Positions 1 through 40,449 of a DNA stretch of 45,440 nt are shown piece after piece. The DNA lies in IMG/VR virus record IMGVR_UViG_2526164690_000022. One strand, 5' to 3'. A program made the position numbers and the translations under genes. Source of the DNA: a virus (taxonomy: Duplodnaviria; Heunggongvirae; Uroviricota; Caudoviricetes). The notes beneath the pieces are model-generated. The model was not told the origin of the DNA and did not search any database. It saw nothing but the letters and a program-made list of their open reading frames with translations. Position 1 is the first letter of the stretch. Each line of letters starts with the position of its first letter.

Positions 1-653
1 CTGAAAATGACATCCATGCCCAGCCCGTGCGCGAGCTGGATCACCGCCCGCACGATAGTTTGGTCACGGGCATCATCCGGGAGCCTGGCGACAAAGGATT
101 GGTCGATTTTCAATGTGGTGATGGGGCAGCATTTCAGATGTTGCAGGCAGGAATAGCCGGTGCCGAAGTCGTCGGCGGCGAAGCGCACGCCGATGGCGCG
201 CAAGGCGTCGAAACTGGCGAACAGGGCTGGATTGCCGAATGCGACCGATTCGGTCAGTTCGATCTCCAGAAGCTCGGCGGGCAGGGCCATATCGGCCAGC
301 ACCCGCTTTACCTCGTCGTCGAACGTTGGCCCAACCTGGCTGGCGGACACATTGATGGCAAGACGGAACGGTTGCCATGCCGGTCCTTGCCACTTGTGCA
401 TCTGGCGACAGGCCTCGCCCAGCACCCACGCGCCTATTTCCGGCATCAGGCCGAACGACTCGGCCAGCGGCAGGAACTGGCCGGGCGGCAACAGGCCAAG
501 CCTCGGATGCCGCCAGCGCATCAACGCTTCCGCGCCAGCGATCCGGTGATCGCGCAGATCGACCAGCGGCTGGTAATGCAGGTCAAGCTGTCCGCGCGCC
601 GCCGCCTGCGCCAACTCGGCCGCCGTCCATCCGGCGGGCTGCGAACTCGTCAT
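1..653 (-). CDS. urf2: Tn21-type Urf2 (EAL-domain-like protein), N-terminal part; CDS runs off the window start
   Basis: ATG at 653-651 overlaps the merE stop (ATGA); manual translation starts [18 protein letters not shown]; no ORF ending in this frame is listed, so no stop is expected before position 1. Confidence 0.6.
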   Translation of the reverse strand, partial: MTSSQPAGWTAAELAQAAARGQLDLHYQPLVDLRDHRIAGAEALMRWRHPRLGLLPPGQFLPLAESFGLMPEIGAWVLGEACRQMHKWQGPAWQPFRLAINVSASQVGPTFDDEVKRVLADMALPAELLEIELTESVAFGNPALFASFDALRAIGVRFAADDFGTGYSCLQHLKCCPITTLKIDQSFVARLPDDARDQTIVRAVIQLAHGLGMDVIF

Positions 654-882
654 GATCCGCCCCGGAAGGCGCGCAGCAGCCGCGTTACGGCCAGAACGAA
701 CAAGCCGGTCAGCGCGAGCGCGGCAACACCCCAATGCTCGCCAAGGAAGGCACCGGCGGTCGTCCCGGCCAGCACGGCGGCGAGAATCGGCAGATGGCAG
801 GGGCAGGTCAACACGGCCAGCGCACCCCACAGGTAGCCGGAAACGGGTTGGCGCGTCTCGGGCGGCAGTTTGTCAGGGGCGT

Positions 883-886
<4 letters not shown>
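650..886 (-). CDS. merE: MerE mercury transport protein (78 aa, GTG start)
   Basis: C-terminal 78 aa of ORF 650..1096: [41 protein letters not shown]...; GTGA overlap with merD stop. Confidence 0.8.
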
Positions 887-3007
<2,121 letters not shown>

Positions 3008-3430
3008 TCACAAGCGCTTGGCGGGGAGTTCGCAGCCGTCCGGTCCGCAACGGCGATGCGCCGGCGACACGAAGTCCCAGATCGACACCCCAATCATCAA
3101 GGCCAGGCCGACGTACATCAGGTTCGCCGTCCACCAGTTGCCGAGCAGCCAGACCGTGGCCGCAAACACGATGGCCGGGCCGATCATGCCGAGCAGACTG
3201 CGCAGCCATTGCCGATGACTGAACCAACCCAGCGCGTTCGCCAGGAAGGCCAGCGCGGCAAACAGCGGCAGCAGGCGGCTGATGAACAGTCCCTCGTACT
3301 GGCTCAAGAAGCCCAGCCCGATGGCCGCGCCGAAGCTGGCGAGGGCTGGAAAGCAGGCGGCGCAGCCCATCGCGGAAACGACGCTGCCGAGCGCGCCGGT
3401 TTTATCGGCAATGCGTGTCATCAGTCCCAT
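3008..3430 (-). CDS. merC: MerC inner-membrane mercury transporter
   Basis: MGLMTRIADKTGALGSVVSAMGCAACFPALASFGAAIGLGF...; presence of merC indicates Tn21-type rather than Tn501-type operon. Confidence 0.8.
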   Translation of the reverse strand: MGLMTRIADKTGALGSVVSAMGCAACFPALASFGAAIGLGFLSQYEGLFISRLLPLFAALAFLANALGWFSHRQWLRSLLGMIGPAIVFAATVWLLGNWWTANLMYVGLALMIGVSIWDFVSPAHRRCGPDGCELPAKRL

Positions 3431-3465
3431 GAAGCGGCTCTCGCTGTTGTCGTTGGCTTGCTGGC

Positions 3466-3741
3466 TCACTGCTTGACGCTGGACGGATAGCCGGCGTCTG
3501 CGGTGGCCTTGGTCAGCTTCTGTACGCTGGCCTTGGTGTCGTCAAAAGTGACGACGGCCTCGCGCTTCTCGAAGCCCACATCGACCTTGCTCACGCCTTC
3601 GGCCTTGGAGAGCGCTTTCTTGACTGTGATCGGGCAGGCGGCGCAAGTCATGCCGGGAACCGCTAGCGTGACGGTCTGGGTAGCGGCCCACACCGGGGCA
3701 ACAGCGGCGGCGAGGGCAAGGGAGGCAAACAGTTTCTTCAT
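3466..3741 (-). CDS. merP: MerP periplasmic mercury-binding protein
   Basis: MKKLFASLALAAAVAPVWA signal peptide followed by the GMTCAACP heavy-metal-binding motif. Confidence 0.85.
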   Translation of the reverse strand: MKKLFASLALAAAVAPVWAATQTVTLAVPGMTCAACPITVKKALSKAEGVSKVDVGFEKREAVVTFDDTKASVQKLTKATADAGYPSSVKQ

Positions 3742-3754
3742 GATGAACTCCTGG

Positions 3755-4106
3755 TTAATAGAAAAATGGAACGACATAGGGAAATCCAAGCGCGACCAGG
3801 ACCAGCACGGCCACGATCCAGAAAATCAGCTTGTAGGTGGCGCGCACCTGCGGAATCGCGCAGACCTCACCTGGCTTGCATGCCTGCACGGGCCGGTAAA
3901 TCCGCTTCCAGGCGAAGAACAGCGCCACTAGCGCCGCGCCGATGAACAACGGTCGATAGGGTTCCAGCACCGTCAGGTTGCCGATCCAAGCACCGGAGAA
4001 GCCCAGGGCGACCAGTACTAGCGGCCCCAGGCAGCAGGTCGATGCAAGAATGGCGGCCAGCCCGCCGGCGAAGAGCGCACCGCGCCCGTTTTTGTGGTTC
4101 AGACAT
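3755..4106 (-). pseudogene. merT: MerT mercury transporter, frameshifted after codon 6
   Basis: MSEPQK then out of frame (ORF 3867..4172); the remainder LEPYRPLFIGAALVALFFAWKRIYRP... is in ORF 3755..3970; one extra A in an A-run. Confidence 0.7.
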
Positions 4107-4177
4107 ACGTTGGCCCTTTTGAATTTGGATTGGATAGCGTAACCTTACTTCCGTACTCATGTACGGAGTCAAGCGAT
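4107..4177. promoter_or_regulatory. mer operator/promoter region between divergent merT and merR
   Basis: Dyad tccgtac-tcat-gtacgga at 4150-4167, the classic MerR operator arrangement. Confidence 0.7.
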
Positions 4178-4612
4178 ATGGAAAATAATTTGGAAAACCT
4201 GACCATTGGCGTTTTTGCCAAGGCGGCCGGGGTCAACGTGGAGACAATCCGCTTCTATCAGCGCAAGGGCCTGTTGCGGGAACCGGACAAGCCTTACGGC
4301 AGCATCCGCCGCTATGGGGAGGCGGACGTGGTTCGGGTGAAATTCGTGAAATCGGCACAGCGGCTGGGGTTCAGTCTGGACGAGATTGCCGAGCTGTTGC
4401 GGCTCGACGATGGCACCCACTGCGAGGAGGCCAGCAGCCTGGCCGAACACAAGCTCAAGGACGTGCGCGAGAAGATGGCCGACTTGGCGCGCATGGAAAC
4501 CGTGCTGTCTGAACTCGTGTGCGCCTGCCATGCACGAAAGGGGAATGTTTCCTGCCCGTTGATCGCGTCACTACAGGGCGAAGCAGGCCTGGCAAGGTCA
4601 GCTATGCCTTAG
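4178..4612 (+). CDS. merR: MerR Hg(II)-responsive transcriptional regulator
   Basis: [33 protein letters not shown]... ending ...[19 protein letters not shown]; the listed ORF starts upstream at 4094 but the canonical start is ATG 4178. Confidence 0.9.
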
Positions 4613-4645
4613 CGTGCTTTATTTTCCGTTTTCTGAGGTGCCCCC
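4608..4645. repeat. 38-bp terminal inverted repeat of the Tn21-family transposon (mer end)
   Basis: cttagcgtgctttattttccgttttctgaggtgccccc is the reverse complement of GGGGGCACCTCAGAAAACGGAAAATAAAGCACGCTAAG; composition changes abruptly after 4645. Confidence 0.85.
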
Positions 4646-4783
4646 TTTAAGTGCGATCCACCAGCCATCTGTGAATGAGATTGGCCTGTTCTATGTGTTT
4701 TTTTTCGGGGCGTTGGCGCTACTTGAATTAGGTATTGAGCTTTTTGCCGTGCTGATGTTTTTCGTCACGATGCTGGGGAAATT

Positions 4784-5410
4784 TTGATGGTGAGATGTGT
4801 TTTGAAAATTTACATCGCGGGGCCGATGACTGGTTATCCCGACTACAACCGCACAGCGTTTTTTTCGAAAGCAAAAGAGCTGATGGAGGAAGGGCATATT
4901 GTTCTGAATCCGGCGCTGTTACCTGCTGGCCTCTGCCAGAGCGAATACATGGATATTTGTCTGGCAATGGTGCGTTCTGCTGATGCGATCTATCTGCTTA
5001 AGGGATGGGATGTGTCCGCAGGAGCACGTGCAGAACACGCTCTGGCTGAAAAACTGGGGTTGACGGTAATTTATGAAGCACCATCTGACACAGATTGCAG
5101 AATGGCAGCGCATCTTTACCGTGAACTGGTCGATGCATTACGTGATGTTGCTATTGAATGTCACGGCACGGATCAGCTTCGCGCCCGCTTAAGCAATACC
5201 CTTTCCAGTTACCTGTCTTTAGCTGAAGGATACAACCTCCGGCAGCGGAGAATGGTCAAATTAATCACGCGTTTATCTCAATCCCTGGCAAATGCCGAAC
5301 CAACTAATCCGCTACCTAATGACGCAATGAATTATCTGAAGTCATGCGGCGTTGTTTCTGAAGATGCAGTTCGTTTTGTGGAGTTTATGTCTCAGAGGAT
5401 GTCGGCGTGA
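4784..5410 (+). CDS. DUF4406-family protein (nucleoside 2-deoxyribosyltransferase-like fold)
   Basis: KIYIAGPMTGYPDYNRTAFF motif; C-terminal module HLYRELVDALRDVAIECHGTDQLRARLS is shared with the 12917..14083 protein. Confidence 0.55.
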   Translation: MMVRCVLKIYIAGPMTGYPDYNRTAFFSKAKELMEEGHIVLNPALLPAGLCQSEYMDICLAMVRSADAIYLLKGWDVSAGARAEHALAEKLGLTVIYEAPSDTDCRMAAHLYRELVDALRDVAIECHGTDQLRARLSNTLSSYLSLAEGYNLRQRRMVKLITRLSQSLANAEPTNPLPNDAMNYLKSCGVVSEDAVRFVEFMSQRMSA

Positions 5411-5724
5411 GCTGGCGGGGATGGGGAAAGGCAGAAATCATGATACTCCGCCAGTGCGCCGGAACTATGACGGTCGAGAATATTGGGAAGCTGATCGGTC
5501 GTACCGGTGATGCCGTCAGGACTAAAGCGCGGGAGTTGGGGATCAGCATGATTCTGAAAGGAGACTTTCATCCGTCAGCCAAATACCGGCAGAGCGATAT
5601 AGAACTGGCACGGCAGCTTCATCAGTGTGGTGTTCCCCGCCGTGAGATCGCGGAAAAACTCGAAATGCCCCTGGGCATGATTAATCAGTACGTTTATTTC
5701 GAAAGGAGAGTGTATGAAGTCTGA
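5407..5724 (+). CDS. Hypothetical small protein, probable HTH
   Basis: ORF overlapping the upstream gene stop; an alternative start MILRQCAG lies at 5440. Confidence 0.4.
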   Translation: MSWRGWGKAEIMILRQCAGTMTVENIGKLIGRTGDAVRTKARELGISMILKGDFHPSAKYRQSDIELARQLHQCGVPRREIAEKLEMPLGMINQYVYFERRVYEV

Positions 5725-6223
5725 AGGTTTAACGCCCGCACAACTGGCAGAGCGTAACGCTGAGTATGTAACGGAAATTTCCCGACTTGAGAAAGAGCGC
5801 GCGGCGCTGGCTGCGGAGAATGCGAGACTGAAGGCGATATGTGAGGATCGCCGCACGTTCATTATGAATGGCGTGCAGCTTGGTTTTATCAAGGTGCCAA
5901 CAGTGGAAATAGATCCAGCTCTTGAAACAATTCGTATCGCCCTATCACCACAAAAAACTACTCCTGCGACCGACACTTTCCTGGATGAAGTGAAGACTGA
6001 AGCACGCAAGGAGGGCGCTTACTTTGTGGCGAACAGAATGCTGGCTGCCTGGGTAGCTGGTTTTATTGATGATACTGCGAAGAACGCCGCGGATATTGCC
6101 CGGATGATTCTTACCTCTACTGAGTTTATGGCTAATGCGCCGGAAGGCGATTTTGACCGCTCATTCTCTGATGGCGTTCTCGAAGATATCGCCGAACAGC
6201 TTCGTAAAGGAGTCATCCAGTGA
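5714..6223 (+). CDS. Ea22-like coiled-coil protein (paralog family)
   Basis: Coiled-coil [21 protein letters not shown]; C-terminal domain TPATDTFLDEVKTEARKEG... is paralogous to the C-terminus of 7208..7993. Confidence 0.45.
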   Translation: MKSEGLTPAQLAERNAEYVTEISRLEKERAALAAENARLKAICEDRRTFIMNGVQLGFIKVPTVEIDPALETIRIALSPQKTTPATDTFLDEVKTEARKEGAYFVANRMLAAWVAGFIDDTAKNAADIARMILTSTEFMANAPEGDFDRSFSDGVLEDIAEQLRKGVIQ

Positions 6224-6888
6224 GCGAGCTTTATTATCAGACGTTACGTGAACGTTTTTCACCGAAACCAGCGCCTAAATGCTCTGTTTGTGGCGAGGAA
6301 ATGTCAATGCAGCGCATATCTGGATCACATGTTGTTTATGCCTGTTCTGGCATGGAGGAAGACGGATGCTTCAAAACTGGACGAACTTATGCTGACGAGC
6401 ATTACAAAAAATCGCGCATAACAGTAGTTGATGATAGCGATCCTGATGTGATTGAACTGCTGGACGAGAACGTGGAGATGGCTCTAACGCTTGAGAATCT
6501 GCGTGTTGAGCTGGAAGCCGCTAAAAAGTGTATTGCAGAGCTGGAAAGCAATTGCGGGGCGCTGGTGGCGGAATGCCAAAACAAAAAAGCAGCACTTGAG
6601 GAAATTCTTAGCCATCTCCCAATTAATCATCCAGATATAGACATCGCATGTGTAGCGAACATAGCTCATAACAAATTAGGCGAGGTGAAAAGCACTACAT
6701 CTGAAGCTTACCTTGTTGAAATACAGGCTCAGGGATTGGAGGCATTCGCTTTGACGATGCGCGATACCGGAGATGATCCATTTTTTGATTCCGTTGCTTC
6801 TGCTTGCGCGGATGCGGCTGACAGGTTCGCAGCCCTGCTTCGTAAAGGACAATCCTGCCTGCGCCCGAACTTTGAAGGGAAAATATGA
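6220..6888 (+). CDS. Hypothetical phage protein with zinc-ribbon and coiled-coil segment
   Basis: CSVCGEEM...YACSG Cys cluster; [26 protein letters not shown] coiled coil; GTG start overlapping the upstream stop. Confidence 0.45.
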
Positions 6889-7211
6889 TGACCACATCGC
6901 ATTCTGCAATTACCCAGGAAAAAGCCTTCCACATACTCGAACGATTAGAAACGCTCGCTACGGAGGAGAAGATATCCCCGGAGATGCTGGTCGAGTGCAG
7001 CCGTGTGATATTGCGTCGCAAGAACGACATCCCGCGGCTGACATCTGGCGCACCATCCGTATCAGCCAGTCCAACGCTTTATTGCAGCTTCTGTAACAAA
7101 TCCCAGCACACCGTTAAAAAGTTAATTGCCGGGGACAACGTTTTCATCTGCAACGAGTGCGTGAAAGATTGCAACAACATTATCCAGGAAGAGCAAAGGG
7201 AATCAGCATGA
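6885..7211 (+). CDS. ClpX N-terminal zinc-binding-domain (ZBD)-like protein, lacking any AAA+ module
   Basis: C-terminal [39 protein letters not shown] aligns with the ClpX C4 zinc finger ([39 protein letters not shown]). Confidence 0.6.
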
Positions 7212-7993
7212 AATTTTCCAAATTTTCTGAGTTGGTGAATCGTATTTTGTCCAACAACCACAGCCATCGTCGCGATATGGATGTAACGATCGTTGTTCAT
7301 TCGCCTGGTCGCATCGGTTCAACACCATCAGTTGAGGTTCAGTCAATTCAGGTGGGTTTTGATTGGGATGCCGGGCAAGTGATGATTTTTCCAGCACAGC
7401 CACTGACCACGCTAACACCAGAACAGATTACTGATATTACTGATAGTGTGCGCAAAGGTCAGTCCTGGCACGCATATCAGGAATACAAGAAGCATAAAGA
7501 GCAGTTGGAAAAATTATCGATTGAACTTGATGCCGCAAAACAGCGCATTGCAGAGCTGGAGGGTAATTGCGCGGCGCTGGCGGCGGAGAATGCGGGAATA
7601 AAGTCTGCAATTCCAGAATCACGGGATATTGAGGATGACAATGACAATATGGATGACGTATCTCTCGCGGAAGATTTCGGGTTCAATCATGCAATAGAAC
7701 TGATGAGGAGACGGATTCCTGAAACTCCGGCCACCGACGCTTTCCTGGCTGAAGTACGTGCGGAGGCACGCAACGAGGGGATTAACTACACCGCAAGCCG
7801 TCTTGCTGCTGCGTTCAATCACGGATTTATCAATAAGTCTTTGCGTGAAGTTTTCGACGTTACACGCATGATTTTGTCAGCGAAAGAAGAGTTGGCTAAT
7901 GAACCGCATCCGCTTGATGGCCTGTCCGGTGAATATGCGGAGAAATCCCTTGAAGAATGGGCGGAACAGATTCGCAAAGGAAGCAGCCAGTGA
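7208..7993 (+). CDS. Ea22-like coiled-coil protein (paralog)
   Basis: Start [10 protein letters not shown] at the ATGA overlap; [21 protein letters not shown] coiled coil; C-terminal [19 protein letters not shown]... Confidence 0.45.
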
Positions 7994-8265
7994 ATATCGA
8001 CACCACGATAACGCTCGATACGGCCCTAAATACCGGTCTGGCACTTCTCGGTTGGCTTTACATCATGTCCCGTACATGGCGATGGCTGGGTTCCATTTTC
8101 CTGAAACAGTGGAAAAAACGGCGCAAACAGGAACTACGCCAGAAGGCATTAGAAGCGTTCTATGACGCATTTGAACTTGGCAGCATTGAACCAGGCACAA
8201 CAGCGAGGATAGCGACAAAAGGCGACCTGATGATAGTGATGTTCAGACAGGAGAAAACAAAATGA
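7990..8265 (+). CDS. Hypothetical small membrane protein
   Basis: GTG start at the GTGA overlap; hydrophobic LNTGLALLGWLYIM segment. Confidence 0.35.
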   Translation: MNIDTTITLDTALNTGLALLGWLYIMSRTWRWLGSIFLKQWKKRRKQELRQKALEAFYDAFELGSIEPGTTARIATKGDLMIVMFRQEKTK

Positions 8266-8486
8266 CAGAACAGACGATGACAAATCGCGAACTTGTTGAT
8301 GCCGCGATTGAACTTGCTGGCGATTTTTATTCCATGATGGGTTACGAGCATCGACCTGGTTTTAAGTATTGGGAGTCACCGCATCCGCAAGAACAACAGG
8401 TGTTTGAAATGGCTTGCCGTGCTTTTGAGTTTATTCGCGGTTCTGATGTGATGGATGCCGTTGCCGACTTGGAGGATGAAGAGTGA
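8262..8486 (+). CDS. Hypothetical protein
   Basis: ORF translationally coupled to its neighbours. Confidence 0.35.
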   Translation: MTEQTMTNRELVDAAIELAGDFYSMMGYEHRPGFKYWESPHPQEQQVFEMACRAFEFIRGSDVMDAVADLEDEE

Positions 8487-8794
8487 GCACAATTAAAGAA
8501 ATGCCGGTAGAACGTGATGAATATGGCTGCTGGACACATCCGGAGTATGAAAAGTTTTGCGCAGGCCGTGAATATATTTCCACTGAGGAATTTGACGCCT
8601 GGATGAAGGAAAATAATCTTCAGTGGACTATTCGCAGTATGGATGAAGATGATTTTGATCTGGACGCAGCTGGTCCCGATATTGCCGCCTGGGAACCGGA
8701 GCGACCAGAGGGTGAAGGCTGGTTTGTTGGCTCTATTCATGACACTGAAGATGGTCCAGTTTGTATCTGGCTGCGGGAGAAGGTTGCCGCATGA
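8483..8794 (+). CDS. Hypothetical protein
   Basis: ORF translationally coupled (ATGA overlap with the phosphatase start). Confidence 0.4.
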
Positions 8795-9483
8795 TCCAGG
8801 CTATGCATGAAGTGAATTTATATAGCCGTATTGATGGTTCTGGCTACAGAAACATATGGGTTGTTGGTGATCTGCATGGTTGCTACACCAGACTGATGTC
8901 CGAACTCCATCGTGTGGATTTTGACCCGGCGCAGGATTTACTGATATCGGTTGGCGACCTTATCGATCGCGGTACTGAAAATGTCGAATGTCTGGAACTA
9001 TTGCAGATGCCCTGGTTCAGGGCAGTAATGGGGAACCATGAGCGGTTGATGCTTGATGCGTTAAGTCCTGATGGCAACGTGAATAACTGGCTAATGAATG
9101 GCGGACAATGGTTCTTCATGCTGGACACTGATCAGGAAATATTAGCCAAGGCGCTGGTGGAGCTGGTAAAGCGTCTGCCATATATCATTGAGTTGAACAC
9201 CGGGCATGAAACTATCGTTATAGCCCATGCCGACTATCCAGGTGGAGAGTACCAGTTCGGTAAGGATGTGTCGCTTTTTGATGTTGTCTGGTCGCGCAGT
9301 CGCGTCGGTGATTCGATAGATGGCATTGGTGGAGAAATCACAGGCGCAGATCGCTTTATCTTTGGGCACACACCGGTACGAAGACCAAAAGCATACTGGA
9401 ATCAGCACTACATAGACACGGGCGCGGTTTTTTGCGGAAATCTGACGCTAATGCAGGTGAAGGGAGGGCAGCTTAAAGTCTGA
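8791..9483 (+). CDS. Lambda-type serine/threonine protein phosphatase (metallophosphoesterase)
   Basis: [25 protein letters not shown] and GNHE motifs; C-terminal [14 protein letters not shown]; the listed ORF starts at 8761 but the coupled start is ATG 8791. Confidence 0.85.
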
Positions 9484-9580
9484 TCAAATCATTTACGCAC
9501 TCAAAATTTGTTAGAACATTGATTTTAGTTTTCTAACATATTATTTTACCGCTCGGAACAAAACAGAGTCGGTATACATT

Positions 9581-10576
9581 ATGAGTGCAATAATCACACC
9601 TCATTTCGTAAACGGAGCTGGTGTGGCTGTCTTTCCGGTAGACAAGCCCACCAGTAACTACATTGGCGCAGGTCGCCGTTTCATTATCTCCCCACTTCCG
9701 CGTGAACAGGCTGAAAACACGCCAGATGGCGTAGTGGATCTGAATTATTCGCTGGTTGCCAACCAGTCTCTGAAACCGTTTTTTCAAAGCGAGCGCGTAT
9801 TTAACGCGTTGGGCGGTGAAGATTCGCTTGTTCATTGGGTAAGTTCCAATATCCACGATTGCCAGGCGCACGATAAGCGCGATTGCAGCCACCAGCTAAC
9901 CACTCATTTCTATAACGGCTCTGCCGTTCGCCTGTGCTGGAAGCATGATGCGGAATACATGATGAAGGGGTACAGCAAGTTGGACGACCAGTTATCCCTG
10001 AATCGTGCCAACTGGGTTATGAACTGGGCTGCGAGCGAGTTAAAACTACCGCCAGAACGCGATCTGAGCATGGTTGAACTCACTTTTTGGGCCATTCGCC
10101 GGAATCTGAAAGATGAGCTACCAGATGAAGCCGGTCGCATTGCATTTTGTCAGCCAAAAACTGAAATCCCTACCGGTACGCTGAAAGAATCAGATATCAC
10201 CTGGGAGCACAGTACCCGCGAGCTGGTGGACATAACCGCAGAGCAGATCGTCAACCTGTCTGTAGATGAGGATTCCGGCCTGCTTTATATGCGCCGACCA
10301 AAAGCGGTCCTCGGTAAAAGCCCGGCTTATCTCCGGTTTGTGGTTTCTCGTCCGTGCATCGGATGCGGTGGCAAAGTTAACCACCCGTTCATGTACCGCG
10401 CCCGCTCGTTAAACGAACACGACCGCTGGGCTGTTCCTCTTTGCGATGACTGCGCCAGAAGCGCAGAAAACGATGTCCGGGCATGGGAAAAAGCACATGG
10501 CATACGCCTTTACGTAGCCGCTAACCAGCTTTTTGACTTCGCCATCGAGCGCGGAGTGATCACTTTCAATAACTGA
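9581..10576 (+). CDS. DUF968-family prophage protein
   Basis: C-terminal Cys cluster CIGCGGKVNHPF...AVPLCDDCARSAEND typical of DUF968 as I recall it. Confidence 0.5.
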   Translation: MSAIITPHFVNGAGVAVFPVDKPTSNYIGAGRRFIISPLPREQAENTPDGVVDLNYSLVANQSLKPFFQSERVFNALGGEDSLVHWVSSNIHDCQAHDKRDCSHQLTTHFYNGSAVRLCWKHDAEYMMKGYSKLDDQLSLNRANWVMNWAASELKLPPERDLSMVELTFWAIRRNLKDELPDEAGRIAFCQPKTEIPTGTLKESDITWEHSTRELVDITAEQIVNLSVDEDSGLLYMRRPKAVLGKSPAYLRFVVSRPCIGCGGKVNHPFMYRARSLNEHDRWAVPLCDDCARSAENDVRAWEKAHGIRLYVAANQLFDFAIERGVITFNN

Positions 10577-14876: not shown

Positions 14877-15266
14877 ATGGGCTTCCCTTCTCCTGCGGCG
14901 GATTATGTTGAAAGCCGAATTTCTCTTGATCAACAACTAATCAGGCATCCATCAGCAACCTACTTCATGCGGGCAGCTGATAGCCATCACCGTGAGGGAA
15001 TATTGCAGGGTGCTTTGCTGGTGGTTGATTCTTCGCTTACTCCAGTTGATGGTTCGCTGCTTGTGTGCGCTATGGAGGGTGAATATCGCATAAAGAGATA
15101 CAGGAAGTATCCGCGCCAGCACCTGGAGGATTTAAGCACCGGGAAGAAAGAGGCGTTACCAGTAGATGACGATGGATACACGGGCAGTAATGCTGTTTTT
15201 GGTGTGATCACCCACATTATCAATGACGCCAGGGGCGGTGAATTTGATGATAGTCCTGCTATATGA
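14877..15266 (+). CDS. humD: HumD, UmuD-prime-like peptidase S24 protein lacking the cleavable N-terminus
   Basis: Starts MGFPSPAADYVE (equivalent to processed UmuD'); retains the Ser/Lys region (AADSHH...EYRIKRYR); preceded by a LexA box. Confidence 0.8.
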   Translation: MGFPSPAADYVESRISLDQQLIRHPSATYFMRAADSHHREGILQGALLVVDSSLTPVDGSLLVCAMEGEYRIKRYRKYPRQHLEDLSTGKKEALPVDDDGYTGSNAVFGVITHIINDARGGEFDDSPAI

Positions 15267-15931: not shown

Positions 15932-16153
15932 ATGCAATCCATTAACTTCCGTACCGCGCGCGGCAACCTTTCTGAAGTGCTCAACAATGTTGAAGCCGGG
16001 GAAGAGGTTGAAATCACCCGCAGAGGCCGTGAGCCAGCAGTAATTGTTAGCAAGGCTACTTTTGAAGCCTACAAAAAAGCGGCGCTGGATGCCGAATTTG
16101 CATCCCTGTTTGACACCCTGGACTCCACCAACAAGGAACTGGTTAACCGATAA
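15932..16153 (+). CDS. phd: Phd antitoxin (prevent host death)
   Basis: [39 protein letters not shown]...; matches my recollection of P1 Phd; overlaps doc start. Confidence 0.9.
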
Positions 16154-16533
16154 TGAGGCATATATCACCGGAAGAACTTATTGCGCTTCATGATGCGAAT
16201 ATAAGCCGCTACGGTGGCCTGCCGGGAATGTCAGATCCGGGTAGGGCAGAGGCCATTATCGGGAGAGTTCAGGCCAGAGTTGCCTACGAAGAGATCAGCG
16301 ACCTTTTCGAAGTCTCCGCCACCTACCTGGTGGCTACAGCGAGAGGGCATATATTCAATGATGCCAATAAGCGTACCGCGCTAAACAGTGCGCTGCTATT
16401 TCTACGCCGTAACGGGGTGCAGGTATTTGATTCACCTGAACTGGCAGACCTTACTGTAGGCGCTGCGACTGGCGAGATATCTGTATCTTCTGTCGCCGAC
16501 ACGTTACGTAGATTGTATGGTTCTGCGGAGTAG
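16153..16533 (+). CDS. doc: Doc toxin (death on curing, Fic-fold kinase)
   Basis: [40 protein letters not shown]... with the [11 protein letters not shown] Fic-like motif; matches P1 Doc. Confidence 0.9.
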
Positions 16534-33612: not shown

Positions 33613-36600
33613 TTAGGCCGCATCGGCGATTATTTTACGCAGTTCATCTACCGAGTAACGCGTAGATACCATCCATGCAGGACGGTCAAAGTTCACATCA
33701 GCAACCGGGTTTGCTTCAAAATTCCAGAAACGCCCGCCAATCTTCTTAATCGCGTCTTTGGCGTTCCGTATTGTCGAGGAACCTGGTTGGTCGGCAATGA
33801 GATAAACCGCGCCAACGTCCTCGCTGACGCTCCACCAGCGCCCGCGAACACGCGCCTTAGCGCGAATCGGCTTATCATTAACCACAATGATATAGTCATC
33901 ATTCGCCGCTTCATCAGCTCTGGCTTCAGCCACTGCCGCCTGCTCTTCTCTTTTGCTTTCAGCCTGCTCAAGCCTTTCCGCGATCTCTGATTCAGTGGCC
34001 CCGCCGTTTTTCAGCGATACATAGTCCTGCCACGTTGCCGATTTGAGCGTATCCGGCAACTCATTCACATAGTCGCCGTCTTTCAACTCACGGGCGCGGC
34101 GGGTAGCCATTTCTACCAGGCGATTAACAGAAACAGCATCAGCAAAATCGTCCTTACTAATGTATTTTTCATCAAATGCATTGATGACAGCCCCCACCTT
34201 AATCCACTGTGCTGCCGGTGATTCCAGGGGGTTATCAGCCTGAACAATGGCGAGTTTCGCTCCATCTACCCCATTATTCGCCAGCTGTTCCAATGCCGCC
34301 CATCCATCTGCATCACTGAGTGATTTATATTGCTCAAACAATGCATCGCGCCAGGCCACCAGCGCAGAACGTGTTTTTTCGATCTTCGTCTTAATTTTCG
34401 CTATCTTGACCTGATTAAACATCCGTTCAATATCATCGATATTGCTAAAGGCTTTCATCCTGCCCTGGAATAAACGGTATGCCAGCACGGTCCTCCAGAA
34501 TGATTCCAGACCTTCTCCGGACGGTTTGCGGAACAAGCTAAGAATATCTTCAGAAGTGACTTTATTAAGCGAGCGACCTGACAGACCACGCCCAGCCATC
34601 CAGTTTTCGAACTCCTGGGCAACATCATCCATCGTTGCTTGTGCGCCCCATGCCTGCATTCCCTGGATGTAATCATACCCATACAATGCCTGGAGGAATC
34701 CCTCTCCGTCCACGATATTCAGCGGATTATCACTGGCTTGTATTTTTGCCACTTCACGCTTCAGCGCCTCATTGTTGATATCAGGGTAAATCCACTGCTC
34801 TGGTGCAATATCCGATGTACGCCCGATTTTCTGTCCTATCATGCCATCATAGGTCGATGACAGCGCGATCTGACCATCATCGGTGCGATAGGCCCAGTAT
34901 TTAATACCTGGTTCACCGCCCCATGCTCTACCAGGCTGGCCTGTAGTGACCTTCATTACTCCGTTACGAATAGCATCATAGAACTGATCGCGAGTAAGTG
35001 ACGTTGATAGCTGGTGGCACTGAACACCACGCGCAGCCGTTGCGCGCGATTCAGCTACCCCCTCTTCAAAAGTTACCGCTTCAATCACAGAGTCAAACGG
35101 CAATGTAACGATTGACCCCGGTGATCGAGCGTAACGACTTGCTCTATCCAGCCAGGCGATACGGCAGATGTATTGTGCTTTTTCACCGTCAATTTTTTCC
35201 ACCCGGACAATCGCTGTTGTTTCGCGATCATCAATGACTGCACGGTAATAACTACCTTTATGCAACAGGATATTCTTGTCAGTGCGCATATATTCCTGTG
35301 GGTTCTGAATAACATCGATACTGATATCCAGCACACCAGACTTAATAGCGCGCTCCACATCACCACGAGAGCGTTTCATTATGGTATCCGCGTCTTTTGC
35401 CCTGGTGATCGCAAACTTCAGCACCCGCGCACGTTTTCTGTAGCTACTCAACTGCTCAAGCGCGTATTTTTGCCCATTCCTGTTCGTACCCGCTTTTATC
35501 AGGTCGTCAAGATTGCGCTGGTAATACTCTATCTGTTCCATCGCGCTTTTCAGTTCTGTCTCCATCATGCCGATATCTTTTCCGGCGGCGTTTGCCGCTT
35601 TCAGGTAGATATCGAGAGCATTGTTGGCCTCGCGCTGTGCTTTCAGTTTCAGACGTTCTTCACGCTCTTGCGCCTGGCGAGCCATGATTGCGCGGCGTTC
35701 TTCCGGGTTTGCCGCCAGCATAATGGCGCGTTCATCAGCATCATCCGCATCACCATTGGCGATCTCTGACATGTCGGAGGTCATCACCATCTTGATCCAG
35801 TCTTTCTTACGTTTCAGCGTATCCAGACGGAAGTCGTCGAATGTGCCTTTGCCACAATAGTAGTGAACATTGACCTTCTCTTGCGGTGAACCTACGCGCG
35901 CACCGCGCCCATTTCGTTGGTCGATACTGGCTGGTGTCCAGGGTAGTGTCAGGTGGTGGATATCGGTTGTCCCGATGTGCAGGTTAATACCTACTTCAGC
36001 CTTCTTGTTACAGATTATGATGCGCGTGCGACCTTCGTTATAGTCGGCGGCAATACCTTCCATGCCCTCAAGGCCAGCATCATTTTTGGCTGAGAGATAA
36101 TCCTCATATTGGGCAAGTTTGCTGTAGTAGGTTTCCCATGCCCCTTCTTTGTATTCACCGTTTTTGTTTGGAGTAGGTTCGGTCGGCTTATTCACCTTCT
36201 TCAGCTTGATGCCGCCAGCCTGGCTAACTGTCGTCGCATTGATAATGCCAATCTCCTGCTCCGGCATTTGCAGTGCACTGGCGATAATACGGCGCAGCTT
36301 CTGGTGCTGGGCTTTTTCATCAATAAAGACGATCTGCTTACCGTTCTTCAGACCTTCACGAAGATTTTCGATCAGCGCGGCATACTTCGGCGGGATGGGG
36401 TGCGATACCTGCTGCATATCAATACCGGCAGCCGCAATGGCCTTAAGTATTTCAGCTTCCAGTTCAATGCTGGCACGTATTTCAACATGCGTCGGATGTT
36501 CACTAAAAGCGGTCTTCACTACCTTGCTGGTACGCGTACTGACCAGCCCGCCAGCGCCGTCTTCCTCGGCCTCATCAACATCATCTGCCACTTTACCGCC

Positions 36601-39600
36601 AGCTACTTTTGGCAAGGCATCAGCAATAGCTTTTACCTGGTCTGCAAGCTCAACGGGGAACTGGAATGTAATCGCACTGGCATACAGATCCGGGTCTATA
36701 GCAACCTTGTCCATGTCACGGATGATGGAGAAGATGAAATCATCCGGTTTGTCGTTAGTGATATGCCCGTTTTCATCGACTGTCAGCTCATCATTGCGAC
36801 TTAACTCCTGAGCACGCTTACGAAGCTCTTCATAAGCAGTCTCCTGCTCCCCTGTCATCGGGATCTGCAAGGTGTTCTCAATGATGTCGGGAATTTTAAC
36901 CGTTGCTCCGACATCTGCAGCAGTCTTCAGAGTGGTCCAACGATGGAAAATACCACGCAGGCCGTCAAGGTTCTGGAAGCCCACCAGCCCCTGCTTCTCT
37001 TCCACTTCCCCGGAAATTTTCTGGACCTGAACTGTGGCTGTTTTGCCAAACACACGAACGAAATCATCAGGCGTAATGATGCCCATGCGCATCCACTCTT
37101 CCTGCGGAATGACAGTAGACAGCATGTTGAAGGCATCAATCGGACTGTTCACCAGCGGAGTTGCCGTCAGCATGACTACACCACGCCCGTTGTTGCGTTT
37201 CATCATGTACGCAGCTTTTACAGCCATGTCGCGGGCCATCTTGGATACTGCCGGGTTAGGCAAATATGCCAGTTGTCCCGCTTCACGCCCGGCATTAAAG
37301 GAGTTGCGGTAGTTATGCCCCTCGTCGGCAATCACGCTATCGAAGTTCATATCCTCAAAGTACGGGATATTCTGCTTCTTCGTTGTACCGGTATTCGCGG
37401 CCTGATCCTTAATCTTGTTCTTCTTCTGCGCATCACGGTGTTTACCGGACGCCAGGTCAAGACGCCCCATTTCCACAGCATTAAAGACAGCTTGCTGTGA
37501 GTTCTCCTCGATGGTTTTTTCTCGTAGCGGGATAGACGCGAATTGTTCTTTTGTCATGATGACCGTTCGCCAATTTGACGACGGGATCATGTTCATGCGC
37601 TGAACGATAACGGCGCTGGCGGACTCTTTCACAACATTTCTGGTAAGAGGCTGCCCGTTACTGTCGAGGCGTGGTTCGCCATTTTCATCAAGCACCGGCG
37701 CGGTCAGAATATTTCCGCTGTCATCACGAACTTCATCCAAACCGATAAACATCATATTGGCGAAGGCATCAGCACTGTAGAAACTCTGTGCCTCGTGATA
37801 CCAGTTCTGATAAACCGCCTTCGGAACAACAATACACGTGCGTTTAGTGCGACCTGTTTCGAAGTTATACGCCTCAAGCGCAAGCGCGGTCGTGGTTTTA
37901 CCCAGCCCGGTACCAAATCCCATGATGCCGCGCCCATCTTCTGACAAGCGCCGAACTTCTTCATTCTGATAAGTAAGAGGAATGCGCTTTCCACTAAGCC
38001 CTTCCAGGCCAAGCGGTGCGTCAGAATGCGTGAACGGAATGAAACCATTGAATGCGTCGTTATACTCGCGGGCTATCTGATCAGCCTGCGGGTGAGTGCG
38101 TAACCAGTCGTTAAAACTAACTTCCAGTTGAGCAATTTTATCCAGGTACTCGTTAGCGTTCTGCCCACGCGGTTTAACACCGTTCAGGTAGTTTTCTAAC
38201 TGGTTCAGGAAGCCGTCTTTATTGTTGGCCTTCTTGAACTCATTCCCGTTTTTGCCGTTTACGGTTCGTAGCTGATAGCCGGTAAATACCCCGTCCTTAC
38301 CTTCGTAATCGTCCGGAGATACCAGAATGCCATCGACGACCTTCAGATCAGGTTCAGTGTACTTAAACTCGTCATAGCCCTGCTCTGCCAGGAACTCTTT
38401 TATCAAGCGGCGATCCAGCCAGCGGGCATTCAGATTAACGGTGACTTTATTTAGTGGCGTGAAAATACGTTTCTCTTCGATTTTCGCCAACTGACGCTCA
38501 AAGTTCGCTTTCTGCTCACCTGTTGACGCATCACGCCAGCCCATCAGCAATGCTGTTTTGGTTGCAATATCGCCGCTGGTGGCGCGGTCCATCGGCAGCA
38601 GGCAGCCATACCCATCAATAGCGATATCATCAAATTTCGCCAGGTATTCAAGGGCCGCGTCGTCGTCCTCTGGCAGTTCACCAGCAAACGCCTCACGAAA
38701 GTCTCCCAGCGTTATAGGATTAAGGGCTACATCACTGAAAAGATGTGCTATCACTTGTTCAGGACGTGTAAAGTCAATACCGGCAGCACCATCCGTTACA
38801 TCAAGTCGCCCTGCCAGAAGGTCAGAAGTGGAACCATCCTGTTTCACATTGCCAGTGAACGTCATCCAGTTTTTAGCGCCAGCTTCAGCAAGCCCATTCA
38901 GCTTAATGGCGTGCGGTGGTCCATACTTCGCAACTTCTGCTGCCGCCAGGCGGGATGCATCTGCCAGTTTGTCATCAACGTTCACACCCAGGTTACGCAA
39001 ATCAAGTGCCTTGTTGATCAACTGACCTATCAGCGCACCGCGCATAACGCGCTCCCTGTCTTTTTCTCGCTGCTTGCCAGCAAAGCGAATCATTGCTGCC
39101 ACTTCATCACTGACAACCGATGGATAGTCGGACGCGATCGCCGATATCTGGTCCCATGACAAAGCCAGAATCCCGTTTGTTGACTGGAACGCGATCTGCA
39201 GATCGCCAAACGTCGAAACACCATATCGACTTACATCAAGCGCGGAGGATTTGGTTGTCGTGTCCTTAACCCATTTCAGACCATCAAACTCATGCCAGAT
39301 ACCGCCTACAAGGCGTTTATCGCCCACTTTCGCGCCCTGCCATGCCTGAGTAGTTACGCCGAGCAAATCCCAATTGATGCGACTATCAAAGCGACGAGAT
39401 AGCGCGGTTTTCATCGACTCATTGGATACACGACCGTCTTTTTTCACCACCAGGGTATTGCGGAAGCTGGTACGTTCCATGTCGCCGTAAACAAATCGCT
39501 TCCCTTCGGTTGTAAACCATTTTCCTTTGAGGAAGGTATCCCAAAGGACGTTTGCCGATTTGAGTGTTGAATCATCCGTGTCGGGGATCATCTCCAGGAA

Positions 39601-40449
39601 GGTTTCCGGGTGTTTACGCAATACCCATACGTCCACCACGGTATCTGTACCGGATTCGCTGAACGTACCAGAAGGCATACGATGTGCGCCCAAAAATTCC
39701 GCTTTACGGCTGACTTTATCGCGCAATTTTTTATATTTCGCACCATCGGTCATGCCATTCGGCACCACCAATACGATAAGCCCACCAGGCTTAACCTTGT
39801 CGATCGTGCGCAGCACAAAGTAATTGCCAACGTTCTTCTCGTTTGCATATGCCGGATCAAGCCCGGCGACACCGGAACGCCCTTCACCAAACGGTACGTT
39901 ACCTACAGCGTGATCATACATTGCGTCTTTCGCCGCCAGCGCCTCAAACGCCCCGATATTCACATCGTCTTCCGGGTGCAAAAGCTGGTTTATTCGACCG
40001 GAAATCGGAGACAGTTCGGCGCTGGTCATTATCATGCCCTGCCGTTTTGTCTCCTGGAAAATACCTGTGCCCGCTGATGGTTCCAGTACGTGCCCGCCAT
40101 CAATACCGTAGTCAGCAAACAGATCCCATATACCTTCAGCCATAAACTGTGGCGTGTAGTATTCGTATTGGCTGCCCTCACCATCTGTCAGGCCGCCTTC
40201 ACCGGTATACCCGGCAAGAATCTGACGTTGTTCGTCAGTTAATTTCGCCCCATCGAAGCCGGGCGGAAGGGAATTAAGAAGATTTACTGCGGCATTGTTT
40301 GCTGCCCGGCGTGTTTTCTGAATACTGACGCCATCGGCTTTCCTGACGCCAAAGGTCGCAACAGCACGTAATTTATGCAACCGACTAACAATTTCAATCA
40401 GTTCGCCTAAGCTGGAGGCTTCACTGATTGAATGAAGTAGTTTGTCCAA
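33613..40449 (-). CDS. darB: DarB-like giant antirestriction protein (N6-adenine methyltransferase + DExH helicase domains)
   Basis: 2278-aa uninterrupted ORF; methyltransferase motif I EPSAGTGIF and motif IV NVPF near the N-terminus; helicase Walker A GFGTGLGKTTTALAL and motif II IADEGHNYRN. Confidence 0.8.
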   Translation of the reverse strand: MDKLLHSISEASSLGELIEIVSRLHKLRAVATFGVRKADGVSIQKTRRAANNAAVNLLNSLPPGFDGAKLTDEQRQILAGYTGEGGLTDGEGSQYEYYTPQFMAEGIWDLFADYGIDGGHVLEPSAGTGIFQETKRQGMIMTSAELSPISGRINQLLHPEDDVNIGAFEALAAKDAMYDHAVGNVPFGEGRSGVAGLDPAYANEKNVGNYFVLRTIDKVKPGGLIVLVVPNGMTDGAKYKKLRDKVSRKAEFLGAHRMPSGTFSESGTDTVVDVWVLRKHPETFLEMIPDTDDSTLKSANVLWDTFLKGKWFTTEGKRFVYGDMERTSFRNTLVVKKDGRVSNESMKTALSRRFDSRINWDLLGVTTQAWQGAKVGDKRLVGGIWHEFDGLKWVKDTTTKSSALDVSRYGVSTFGDLQIAFQSTNGILALSWDQISAIASDYPSVVSDEVAAMIRFAGKQREKDRERVMRGALIGQLINKALDLRNLGVNVDDKLADASRLAAAEVAKYGPPHAIKLNGLAEAGAKNWMTFTGNVKQDGSTSDLLAGRLDVTDGAAGIDFTRPEQVIAHLFSDVALNPITLGDFREAFAGELPEDDDAALEYLAKFDDIAIDGYGCLLPMDRATSGDIATKTALLMGWRDASTGEQKANFERQLAKIEEKRIFTPLNKVTVNLNARWLDRRLIKEFLAEQGYDEFKYTEPDLKVVDGILVSPDDYEGKDGVFTGYQLRTVNGKNGNEFKKANNKDGFLNQLENYLNGVKPRGQNANEYLDKIAQLEVSFNDWLRTHPQADQIAREYNDAFNGFIPFTHSDAPLGLEGLSGKRIPLTYQNEEVRRLSEDGRGIMGFGTGLGKTTTALALEAYNFETGRTKRTCIVVPKAVYQNWYHEAQSFYSADAFANMMFIGLDEVRDDSGNILTAPVLDENGEPRLDSNGQPLTRNVVKESASAVIVQRMNMIPSSNWRTVIMTKEQFASIPLREKTIEENSQQAVFNAVEMGRLDLASGKHRDAQKKNKIKDQAANTGTTKKQNIPYFEDMNFDSVIADEGHNYRNSFNAGREAGQLAYLPNPAVSKMARDMAVKAAYMMKRNNGRGVVMLTATPLVNSPIDAFNMLSTVIPQEEWMRMGIITPDDFVRVFGKTATVQVQKISGEVEEKQGLVGFQNLDGLRGIFHRWTTLKTAADVGATVKIPDIIENTLQIPMTGEQETAYEELRKRAQELSRNDELTVDENGHITNDKPDDFIFSIIRDMDKVAIDPDLYASAITFQFPVELADQVKAIADALPKVAGGKVADDVDEAEEDGAGGLVSTRTSKVVKTAFSEHPTHVEIRASIELEAEILKAIAAAGIDMQQVSHPIPPKYAALIENLREGLKNGKQIVFIDEKAQHQKLRRIIASALQMPEQEIGIINATTVSQAGGIKLKKVNKPTEPTPNKNGEYKEGAWETYYSKLAQYEDYLSAKNDAGLEGMEGIAADYNEGRTRIIICNKKAEVGINLHIGTTDIHHLTLPWTPASIDQRNGRGARVGSPQEKVNVHYYCGKGTFDDFRLDTLKRKKDWIKMVMTSDMSEIANGDADDADERAIMLAANPEERRAIMARQAQEREERLKLKAQREANNALDIYLKAANAAGKDIGMMETELKSAMEQIEYYQRNLDDLIKAGTNRNGQKYALEQLSSYRKRARVLKFAITRAKDADTIMKRSRGDVERAIKSGVLDISIDVIQNPQEYMRTDKNILLHKGSYYRAVIDDRETTAIVRVEKIDGEKAQYICRIAWLDRASRYARSPGSIVTLPFDSVIEAVTFEEGVAESRATAARGVQCHQLSTSLTRDQFYDAIRNGVMKVTTGQPGRAWGGEPGIKYWAYRTDDGQIALSSTYDGMIGQKIGRTSDIAPEQWIYPDINNEALKREVAKIQASDNPLNIVDGEGFLQALYGYDYIQGMQAWGAQATMDDVAQEFENWMAGRGLSGRSLNKVTSEDILSLFRKPSGEGLESFWRTVLAYRLFQGRMKAFSNIDDIERMFNQVKIAKIKTKIEKTRSALVAWRDALFEQYKSLSDADGWAALEQLANNGVDGAKLAIVQADNPLESPAAQWIKVGAVINAFDEKYISKDDFADAVSVNRLVEMATRRARELKDGDYVNELPDTLKSATWQDYVSLKNGGATESEIAERLEQAESKREEQAAVAEARADEAANDDYIIVVNDKPIRAKARVRGRWWSVSEDVGAVYLIADQPGSSTIRNAKDAIKKIGGRFWNFEANPVADVNFDRPAWMVSTRYSVDELRKIIADAA

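Follow-up and report, generated by a model that had tools for sequence, protein, structure and literature searches.

Many proteins of importance to mobile elements are under the control of ClpXP, among them lambda O, MuA, UmuD', sigmaS, FtsZ, and antitoxins such as Phd and MqsA. The N-domain of ClpX, a C4-type zinc-binding domain (ZBD), dimerizes on its own. It is dispensable for the recognition of ssrA tags and is required for the docking of SspB and RssB and for the direct recognition of lambda O, MuA, UmuD', FtsZ, and unfolded MqsA. Free ZBD supplied in trans at 5 to 20 µM inhibits RssB-dependent degradation of sigmaS by 0.6 µM ClpXP in vitro (PMC7226468 Fig. 1d), and the SspB tail peptide competes with other clients of the ClpX N-domain (PMC7226468, PMC8808172). 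Lambda O is a classic N-domain-dependent substrate of ClpXP (PMC7804408, PMC8808172), and UmuD' has also been named as a ClpXP client (PMC8808172). Here we describe a gene for a free-standing ClpX-type ZBD in a 45,440-nucleotide stretch of DNA, referred to below as the window, from a virus of the Caudoviricetes (IMG/VR record IMGVR_UViG_2526164690_000022). We then consider whether the protein might compete with ClpX for the ligands of its N-domain.

The ZBD-only protein and its similarity to the ClpX N-domain

On sequence grounds and in its predicted fold, the ZBD-only protein is a genuine ClpX-type C4 zinc finger without an AAA+ module; it is not a ClpX. Its open reading frame (ORF), at 6885..7211 on the plus strand, encodes 108 amino acids from the ATG at 6885, and the second ATG, at 6888, gives the 107-amino-acid product that RefSeq annotates on near-identical plasmids (WP_000213525.1). 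No support was found for other ORFs overlapping 6885..7211 on either strand. The gene and the parts of its product are as follows.

6885..7211, plus strand: coding sequence of the ZBD-only protein, with the stop codon TGA at 7209-7211
6915..7043, plus strand: N-terminal family-specific domain, predicted to be a helical hairpin with one helix at residues 11-27 and another at 32-53
7044..7070, plus strand: linker, residues 54-62 (TSGAPSVSA), predicted to be disordered
7071..7205, plus strand: ClpX-type C4 zinc-binding domain, residues 63-107, with treble-clef beta-hairpins and a C-terminal helix (predicted)
7083..7094, plus strand: first zinc knuckle, C67-S-F69-C70, equivalent to C15-S-F17-C18 of ClpX (Met-counted)
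7149..7160, plus strand: second zinc knuckle, C89-N-E-C92, equivalent to C37-D-E-C40 of ClpX

A first-pass annotation had placed a ClpX C4 zinc finger at the C terminus of this protein, and the profile and structure comparisons bore this out. Residues 66-102 aligned with positions 2-39 of the 39-position Pfam profile zf-C4_ClpX (PF06689) at 64.1 bits (cut-off, 27; E = 1e-17), and the zinc-ligand spacing CxxC-x18-CxxC was intact (C67, C70, C89, and C92). The best sequence match in the PDB (phmmer) was the E. coli ClpX ZBD, 1OVX (E = 1e-15); among ClpX structures, that from E. coli scored higher (60.7 bits) than those from Listeria (42.3) and Neisseria (36.9). The window protein and E. coli ClpX had 28 identical residues in the 40-residue core (LLYC...REE in ClpX). 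An AlphaFold2 model made from 24 homologs had a mean predicted local distance difference test score (pLDDT) of 72.8, with values of 80-87 in the zinc finger blocks, 62-81 in the block of the N-terminal hairpin, and less than 50 for residues 57-60 of the linker. When this predicted model was searched with Foldseek, the top eight PDB matches were all ClpX ZBDs, including 2DS6, 2DS5, 2DS8, and 1OVX, of which 2DS8 is the complex of the ZBD with XB. The superpositions had root mean square deviations of 1.2-1.9 Å, and the target TM scores were 0.72-0.80 for the isolated-ZBD entries. The full-length ClpX models scored far below threshold, with 47.4 bits for NF003745 (cut-off, 359) and 43.6 bits for TIGR00382 (cut-off, 371), and were aligned over profile positions 5-47 only, in agreement with the annotated lack of an AAA+ module.

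The first-pass annotation had implied that recognition of the domain was new, and in this it was mistaken: the RefSeq product name for WP_000213525.1 is already 'ClpX C4-type zinc finger protein'. The legacy GenBank name of many homologs, 'carboxylate--amine ligase' (e.g., D6 orf93, P88 gp19, and many E. coli and Salmonella entries), is a propagated misannotation, as no ligase domain of the ATP-grasp or GCS2 type was present in Pfam or NCBIfam searches down to E = 1. Matches to Pfam BRCA2-OB3 (E = 0.023) and NCBIfam PRK10410 (E = 0.053) were below threshold and were taken as spurious. The match to PHROG 6797 ran end to end (E = 1.4e-56), with residues 2-107 aligned to positions 1-106 of the 107 in the profile; this family was also matched by P88 gp19 and by P0026, a homolog from Salmonella. 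Scans with Pfam, NCBIfam, and PADLOC returned no DNA-binding or other family for the ZBD-only protein, and none of the PADLOC defense models matched this protein or four neighbors. A word-indexed homolog search with the 48-amino-acid ZBD alone gave only two matches. Literature searches found no functional study of the ZBD-only protein.

The positions at which ClpX contacts its N-domain ligands are largely retained. ClpX residues Phe16 and Ile46 in mature numbering are F17 and I47 when the initial methionine is counted; they make up the hydrophobic pocket that trigger factor, SspB, RssB, and lambda O have in common (PMC7804408). The MqsA degron requires residues L12, L13, and H23, K27, I29, and A30 gave the strongest nuclear magnetic resonance shifts, and L13, H23, K27, I29, and A30 make up the site for the MqsA degron and SspB (PMC8808172). 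Eight contact positions were compared (Met-counted L12, L13, F17, H23, K27, I29, A30, and I47). Seven were identical to ClpX (L65, F69, H75, K79, I81, A82, and I99), and at the eighth, L12 is replaced by T64. F69, the equivalent of mature Phe16 in the adaptor-binding pocket, was invariant in the family, and I99 is the equivalent of Ile46. Motifs resembling XB (LRVVK or LKxh) were also considered in helix 2 of the protein itself (ILRRK) and in the 'LRKG' C-terminal tails of its Ea22-like neighbors, and these did not fit the published motifs.

The N-terminal part of the protein is a lineage-specific domain, present always together with the ZBD. An exhaustive phmmer search with residues 1-63 against 1.84e9 representative proteins returned nine matches, all of them members or fragments of the same family, and all the complete sequences among them carried the same zinc finger. 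The hairpin was not recognized by Pfam, and fold searches gave no meaningful match. The N-terminal extension, which had been called unique before any database search, is thus as restricted as it was thought to be. One protein in the representative library, P0027 (190 amino acids), consists of three tandem repeats that resemble N-domain residues 34-58 (LILKRKGDVRRLTNGAPRG...).

Distribution, divergence, and recombination

Identity between the window and ~92-kb non-mobilizable plasmids from E. coli and Salmonella was 99.9% from position 4645 up to at least 25000, where the query ended; identity to phage D6, a relative of P1, was ~96%, in patches. The window also encodes pacA/pacB, c1, a tyrosine recombinase, a HumD/UmuD'-like S24 peptidase, Phd/Doc, and a 2278-amino-acid SNF2-type protein. 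As judged from these matches, the window is a D6-like (P1-related) phage-plasmid, and the designation of the protein as phage encoded was correct.

Homologs were restricted to Escherichia, Shigella, and Salmonella, where they occurred in D6-like and SSU5-like phage-plasmids, in P88/P2-like prophages, and in lambdoid hybrids. A homolog was carried by 95 of 72,556 plasmids, which among the matches listed were D6-like phage-plasmids of ~90 kb or SSU5-like phage-plasmids of ~107-111 kb. Homologs were also found in 195 of 5426 complete E. coli genomes (about 3.6%), about equally on plasmids and chromosomes. None of the matches in these 195 genomes was at clpX; the host gene was not matched at the DNA level in any of the 5426 genomes, indicating that the ZBD gene is not a recent fragment of the resident clpX.

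Two clades were distinguished. Clade A ('MTTSHSAIT...'), to which the window protein belongs, was found in D6-like and SSU5-like elements and in P88-like prophages of the P2 family, and clade B ('MQHIDREKA...') in P88 and in P2-like prophages of Salmonella. The two-domain architecture, including the predicted hairpin, is kept between the clades. Among 33 distinct family cores, the four zinc-binding cysteines, and with them both knuckles, were invariant, as were F69, V93, and C96; I100 was nearly so (29 I, 4 V). Loss of the four Cys ligands in homologs had been named in the first-pass annotation as an observation that would speak against its proposal, and no such loss was seen. Ratios of nonsynonymous to synonymous polymorphism (pN/pS) were 0.35-0.5 for both domains, within and between clades, which indicates that both domains are under purifying selection and that the gene is functional rather than debris. 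Positive selection on the clade A ZBD was considered on the basis of initial window-based ratios of nonsynonymous to synonymous divergence (dN/dS) of 0.7-1.2 and was rejected when exclusion of the variable C-terminal tail and addition of further alleles lowered the pooled value to 0.52 (0.32-0.80 per pair).

Synonymous divergence (dS) was at or near saturation: it could not be estimated for the N-domain and was 0.9-1.2 for the ZBD. Core identity to E. coli ClpX was 28/40 for the window protein and 31/40 for P88 gp19 of clade B, whereas the two phage proteins were identical to each other at only 27/40 positions (counted by eye), fewer than either shares with ClpX. They differ at 13 positions, and at 11 of these the residue of E. 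coli ClpX is retained in one or the other (counted by eye on alignments), as expected if both clades descend from, and stay near, an enterobacterial ClpX-like sequence.

At the linker, recombination has coupled the ZBD to different N-terminal modules. A lambdoid prophage locus (L020) was 98.5% identical to window positions 7033-7513 and differed upstream, where it encodes an Ea22-type N terminus and a coiled coil in place of the hairpin. The ZBD of the resulting hybrid protein, P0022, was 98% identical to that of the window protein. Homologs P0012 (L015 7001-7333) and P0018 (L018 7001-7318) had nearly identical N-domains, with one synonymous and four nonsynonymous differences, whereas ~40% of the residues in their ZBD cores differed. 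It follows that the two domains of these proteins differ in their history and that recombination occurred at the linker. A coiled-coil motif, 'ALAAENAG(I/L)K', is common at the DNA level to the Ead/Ea22-like paralogs (window 5804-5833 and 7574-7607) and is also present at about 4151-4184 of L020, just 5' of the junction in hybrid P0022. The sharing of this motif by the paralogs and the junction suggests that short-homology recombination shuffles modules in these arrays.

Gene neighborhood

In the window the ZBD gene is part of a head-to-tail array that includes genes for a DUF4406 protein, three Ead/Ea22-like paralogs, a DUF4752 protein, and a metallophosphoesterase. The elements that join the gene to its neighbors, and two loci farther downstream that bear on its possible role, are the following.

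6220..6888, plus strand: upstream Ead/Ea22-like gene (PF13935), also the neighbor in D6 and PhiR41_1
6874..6879, plus strand: Shine-Dalgarno-like GAAGGG, read from the sequence, 5 nucleotides 5' of the ATG at 6885 and 8 nucleotides 5' of the ATG at 6888, within the end of the upstream gene
6885..6890, plus strand: ATGATG, which holds both candidate start codons and also the TGA (6886-6888) that ends the upstream Ead/Ea22-like gene
7208..7211, plus strand: ATGA overlap of the ZBD gene stop with the start of the downstream Ead/Ea22-like gene
7208..7993, plus strand: downstream Ead/Ea22-like gene (PF13935), the 5' third of which moves with the ZBD module into the lambdoid prophage
14877-15266 and 15933-16533, plus strand: HumD/UmuD'-like S24 peptidase and Phd/Doc addiction module

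The overlaps with both neighbors at start and stop indicate that the ZBD gene is a tightly translationally coupled member of an operon. Both flanking genes matched Pfam PF13935, whereas the ZBD-only protein did not. The upstream Ead/Ea22-like protein (6220-6888, plus strand) has an N-terminal cysteine pattern, CSVC-x17-C-x7-C, that may be a zinc ribbon. The giant 2278-amino-acid ORF (33613-40449, minus strand) has SNF2, ResIII, and helicase-C domains and is reminiscent of P1 DarB.

A mercury-resistance (mer) transposon with 99.8% identity to merA/merC/merT/merR records occupies window positions 1-4644. The terminal inverted repeat of the transposon, at about 4607-4644 and presumably of the Tn21 family, adjoins plasmid sequence within the operon's first small ORF, so that in this copy the operon is cut off from its native upstream region next to ref. 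A sigma-70 scan of positions 4000-10000 identified no promoter on the plus strand, nor was there a terminator that would set the ZBD gene apart. A search for sites like the P1 C1 operator gave one match with three mismatches, at 9504-9520, which is far downstream and no better than chance, and a search with the core 'TTCTAACA' gave nothing.

The position of the gene differs between element types. In the D6-like and SSU5-like phage-plasmids it lies within Ead/Ea22 arrays. In P2-like prophages it closes the early replication operon, after gpA and usually after ParM/ParR, before the portal gene or ogr, and in the lambdoid hybrids it is directly 3' of O/P-type replication genes. Adjacency to Ead/Ea22 genes is missing in P88, in DA33135, in the context of Salmonella P0026, and in the lambdoid hybrids. 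Signals for independent (moron) expression were sought in the P2-like prophages, and only a GC-rich hairpin without a T-run was found upstream, with a terminator after the cargo genes. In P88-like prophages this hairpin is strong (CATCAGGGCGCATCCGCCCTGATG; L005 5760-5783) and is located between the ParR-like and ZBD genes. The Ead/Ea22 genes of lambda are some of the first to be transcribed, and Ea22 is pro-lysogenic, with a C-terminal domain that resembles the T4 antitoxin Dmd. All of these genomic slots fit early, host-directed accessory genes. Because they take up general cargo as well, the link to replication genes is suggestive only. In a P2-like prophage of E. coli C7 (L007), Phd/Doc is directly beside the ZBD gene; a functional link based on this adjacency was rejected because sister prophages hold other cargo there.

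Possible functions and comparison with known systems

The first-pass annotation had proposed that the free ZBD could be a decoy or a dominant-negative partner that reprograms host ClpXP proteolysis. The decoy idea is plausible in view of the in vitro precedent for the free ZBD and the retention of seven of eight contact residues, and the dominant-negative version, in which the protein would form a heterodimer with the ZBD of ClpX itself, is the less likely half of the proposal. We put at about 0.45 the probability that the protein is a dimeric or oligomeric mimic of the ClpX N-domain that titrates N-domain-dependent adaptors and substrates, such as SspB, RssB/sigmaS, lambda-O-type proteins, UmuD/D', and MqsA-type antitoxins. 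The protein would fold as a zinc-bound dimer, by analogy with the isolated ClpX ZBD, and would capture peptide motifs that dock on the N-domain, namely, the XB tail of SspB, RssB, the UmuD tether, N-domain degrons of the lambda-O/MuA type, and the degrons of unfolded MqsA-type antitoxins. Such competition would lower ClpXP degradation of N-domain-dependent clients and would spare substrates recognized at the pore, such as those with ssrA tags.

The amphipathic N-terminal hairpin would most likely add self-association, bringing more ZBD dimers into each particle and providing avidity for weak, micromolar ligands, or would bind one specific partner. The coiled coil that replaces the hairpin in P0022 is expected if the N-terminal module supplies oligomerization. 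The pay-off for the element could be stabilization of its own ClpXP-sensitive proteins (the replication initiator, the Phd antitoxin, or HumD/UmuD') or the blocking of protease-triggered toxin-antitoxin defenses early in lytic growth. P1 Phd is a ClpXP client, as is UmuD', and the HumD/UmuD'-like peptidase and Phd/Doc module encoded by the same element are therefore candidate beneficiaries of an N-domain decoy.

Several observations weigh against this decoy model. The one altered contact position, T64, corresponds to ClpX L12, and the L12S substitution in ClpX impairs binding of the MqsA degron (PMC8808172). One helical turn from Ile46/I99, a Lys-Asp pair replaces mature Asp41-Leu42 of ClpX (L43 when Met-counted, D95 in the window protein), and the Leu42-equivalent position, Asp in the window allele, holds a hydrophobic residue in 30 of 33 family cores. 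At the position of H23, the family has H, Y, T, or A. A sub-clade (P0016-P0021 and P0047/48) has drifted to 18-24/40 identity with ClpX and carries K27L, A30T, and Y35C, which is not expected of a strict host mimic. In vitro, inhibition by the free ZBD needs a roughly 10- to 30-fold molar excess (PMC7226468), so a decoy would require high expression or avidity. Furthermore, no promoter was identified, and the mer transposon severs the native upstream region. The association with replication genes may reflect nothing more than shared accessory slots, and the conserved, selected N-domain of ~53 residues is not explained by a plain decoy model.

One alternative that would give the conserved N-domain a role, that of cargo binder, is that the protein is a module for tethering to ClpX. 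In this case the ZBD would pair with a ZBD protomer of ClpX or dock on ClpX, and the hairpin would either deliver a target, making the protein a phage-made adaptor, or block or mis-position the N-domains in a dominant-negative manner. A mixed dimer is conceivable because V93, C96, I100 (in its 29 I, 4 V distribution), and I88, which lie in the core of the hairpins and the C-terminal helix, and the zinc ligands are conserved and identical to ClpX, and a constant ZBD with interchangeable N-terminal heads is the architecture expected of adaptors. However, the ClpX hexamer holds its ZBDs at very high local concentration, isolated ZBD readily self-dimerizes, and Wojtyra et al. in 2003 reportedly found ZBD dimers to be very stable; invasion by a free protein thus seems disfavored. 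Nor was a candidate cargo found, the N-domain being without homologs outside the family. We therefore consider tethering unlikely.

Reuse of the treble-clef finger as a generic binder of proteins or nucleic acids unrelated to ClpXP, for example, together with the Ead/Ea22-like neighbors in lysis-lysogeny or anti-toxin functions, is similarly doubtful; the likeness to ClpX would then reflect ancestry. This explanation is favored by the repeated adjacency of the ZBD gene to Ead/Ea22-like genes in three element types, and even its fusion to an Ea22-type N terminus, as well as by the pro-lysogenic character and Dmd-like domain of lambda Ea22. It would also fit the divergence of the 18-24/40 sub-clade at ligand-contact positions and the existence of a standalone ZBD in a cellular housekeeping context (P0024, described below). 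Yet surface residues too have stayed ClpX-like (K72-S-Q-H75 and K79-L-I-A-G83) across near-saturated synonymous divergence, with both clades at 28-31/40, no DNA-binding or other family was matched, and the adjacency to Ea22 is not universal. A nonfunctional remnant, in which a captured piece from the 5' end of clpX became joined accidentally to unrelated sequence and is passively carried, might be imagined for a small gene in a highly mosaic region. This is very improbable considering that host clpX was not detected at the DNA level, that pN/pS was low in both domains of two deep clades with the same two-domain architecture, that the cysteines and the phenylalanine are invariant, and that the gene is translationally coupled.

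If the protein is instead an N-domain decoy, it would reprogram only the adaptor- or N-domain-dependent branch of ClpXP proteolysis, sparing ssrA quality control, and would offer a natural tool to separate the ClpXP branches in vivo. It would also link the abundant, unannotated accessory genes of the 'ea region' to host proteolysis, toxin-antitoxin defense, and plasmid-prophage maintenance. A broader proposal, which we advance only tentatively, is that enterobacterial temperate phages and phage-plasmids deploy a mimic of the ClpX substrate-selection domain as a broad 'anti-adaptor' that stabilizes replication initiators, labile antitoxins, UmuD'/HumD, and sigmaS. Such an anti-adaptor would be the first regulator of ClpX substrate choice to be encoded by a virus, and antitoxin stabilization would block ClpXP-triggered toxin-antitoxin or abortive-infection responses and tune Phd/Doc addiction.

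Compared with the ClpX ZBD itself, the window ZBD is alike in the spacing of its C4 site, its core sequence, its predicted fold, and seven of eight contact residues. It differs in being free-standing, C-terminal, behind a novel hairpin, and encoded by a mobile element, with the L12T and D41K/L42D replacements, whereas the ClpX ZBD is N-terminal to the AAA+ ring. Full-text literature searches found no study of a free-standing phage ZBD. ClpX-type fingers without AAA+ are also present in other phage proteins of 57-80 amino acids: PHROGs 12435 and 5259, an ORF of Caulobacter phage Cr30, and a 65-amino-acid 'Clp protease' of Pseudomonas phage PP9W2. These proteins are without the helical-hairpin N-domain, come from lytic or unrelated phages, and belong to separate PHROG families; they may be separate lineages or independent captures, in the latter case perhaps tracking the ClpX of each phage's host. 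In Cr30 (NC_025422, about 81470-81709; L008 2486-2725), the complete ORF of 72-79 amino acids encodes a ClpX-type finger, and the RefSeq call is wrong, as gp170, given as 41 amino acids, starts inside the finger. A T4-like lytic phage thus also carries a free-standing ZBD. The 104-amino-acid P0024 (L012 6001-6315) has an N-terminal ZBD and an unrelated C-terminal tail in a bacterial housekeeping neighborhood (murA-like, mreB, priA, def, and fmt), which demonstrates that free ZBDs are not confined to phages. Their presence in several unrelated phages makes free ZBDs a recurrent, uncharacterized theme.

Among the nearest concepts in proposed function are the E. coli anti-adaptors IraD, IraM, and IraP, small proteins that stop an adaptor from handing its client to ClpXP by blocking RssB delivery of sigmaS. 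IraD and the ClpX ZBD have been proposed to share a docking site on RssB (PMC7226468). The Ira proteins have no kinship with the window protein in sequence or fold, are specific to RssB, and are encoded by chromosomal stress-response genes, whereas competition by a ZBD mimic should extend to all ligands of the N-domain. Plastid ClpT1 and ClpT2, free-standing homologs of the ClpC N-domain that act on assembly of the ClpP ring, set a precedent for action in trans on a Clp machine by the isolated N-domain of a Clp ATPase. These differ in belonging to another N-domain family, in their role in ring assembly, and in being encoded by the host rather than a virus.

Phages are known to direct small proteins at other host proteases. 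T4 PinA and T7 Gp4.5 inhibit Lon, with Gp4.5 stopping antitoxin degradation, and SPO1 Gp53 targets ClpC. To our knowledge, a comparable phage protein directed at ClpX has not been described, and literature searches found none that acts on ClpX substrate selection. The concept proposed for the ZBD-only protein, in which a small early phage protein reprograms an ATP-dependent protease of the host, is the same as for PinA, Gp4.5, and Gp53. Those proteins act on other proteases, bind the protease itself, and are in no case a copied protease domain, whereas the ZBD-only protein, if it is a decoy, would be a viral modulator of a host AAA+ protease that acts by domain mimicry.

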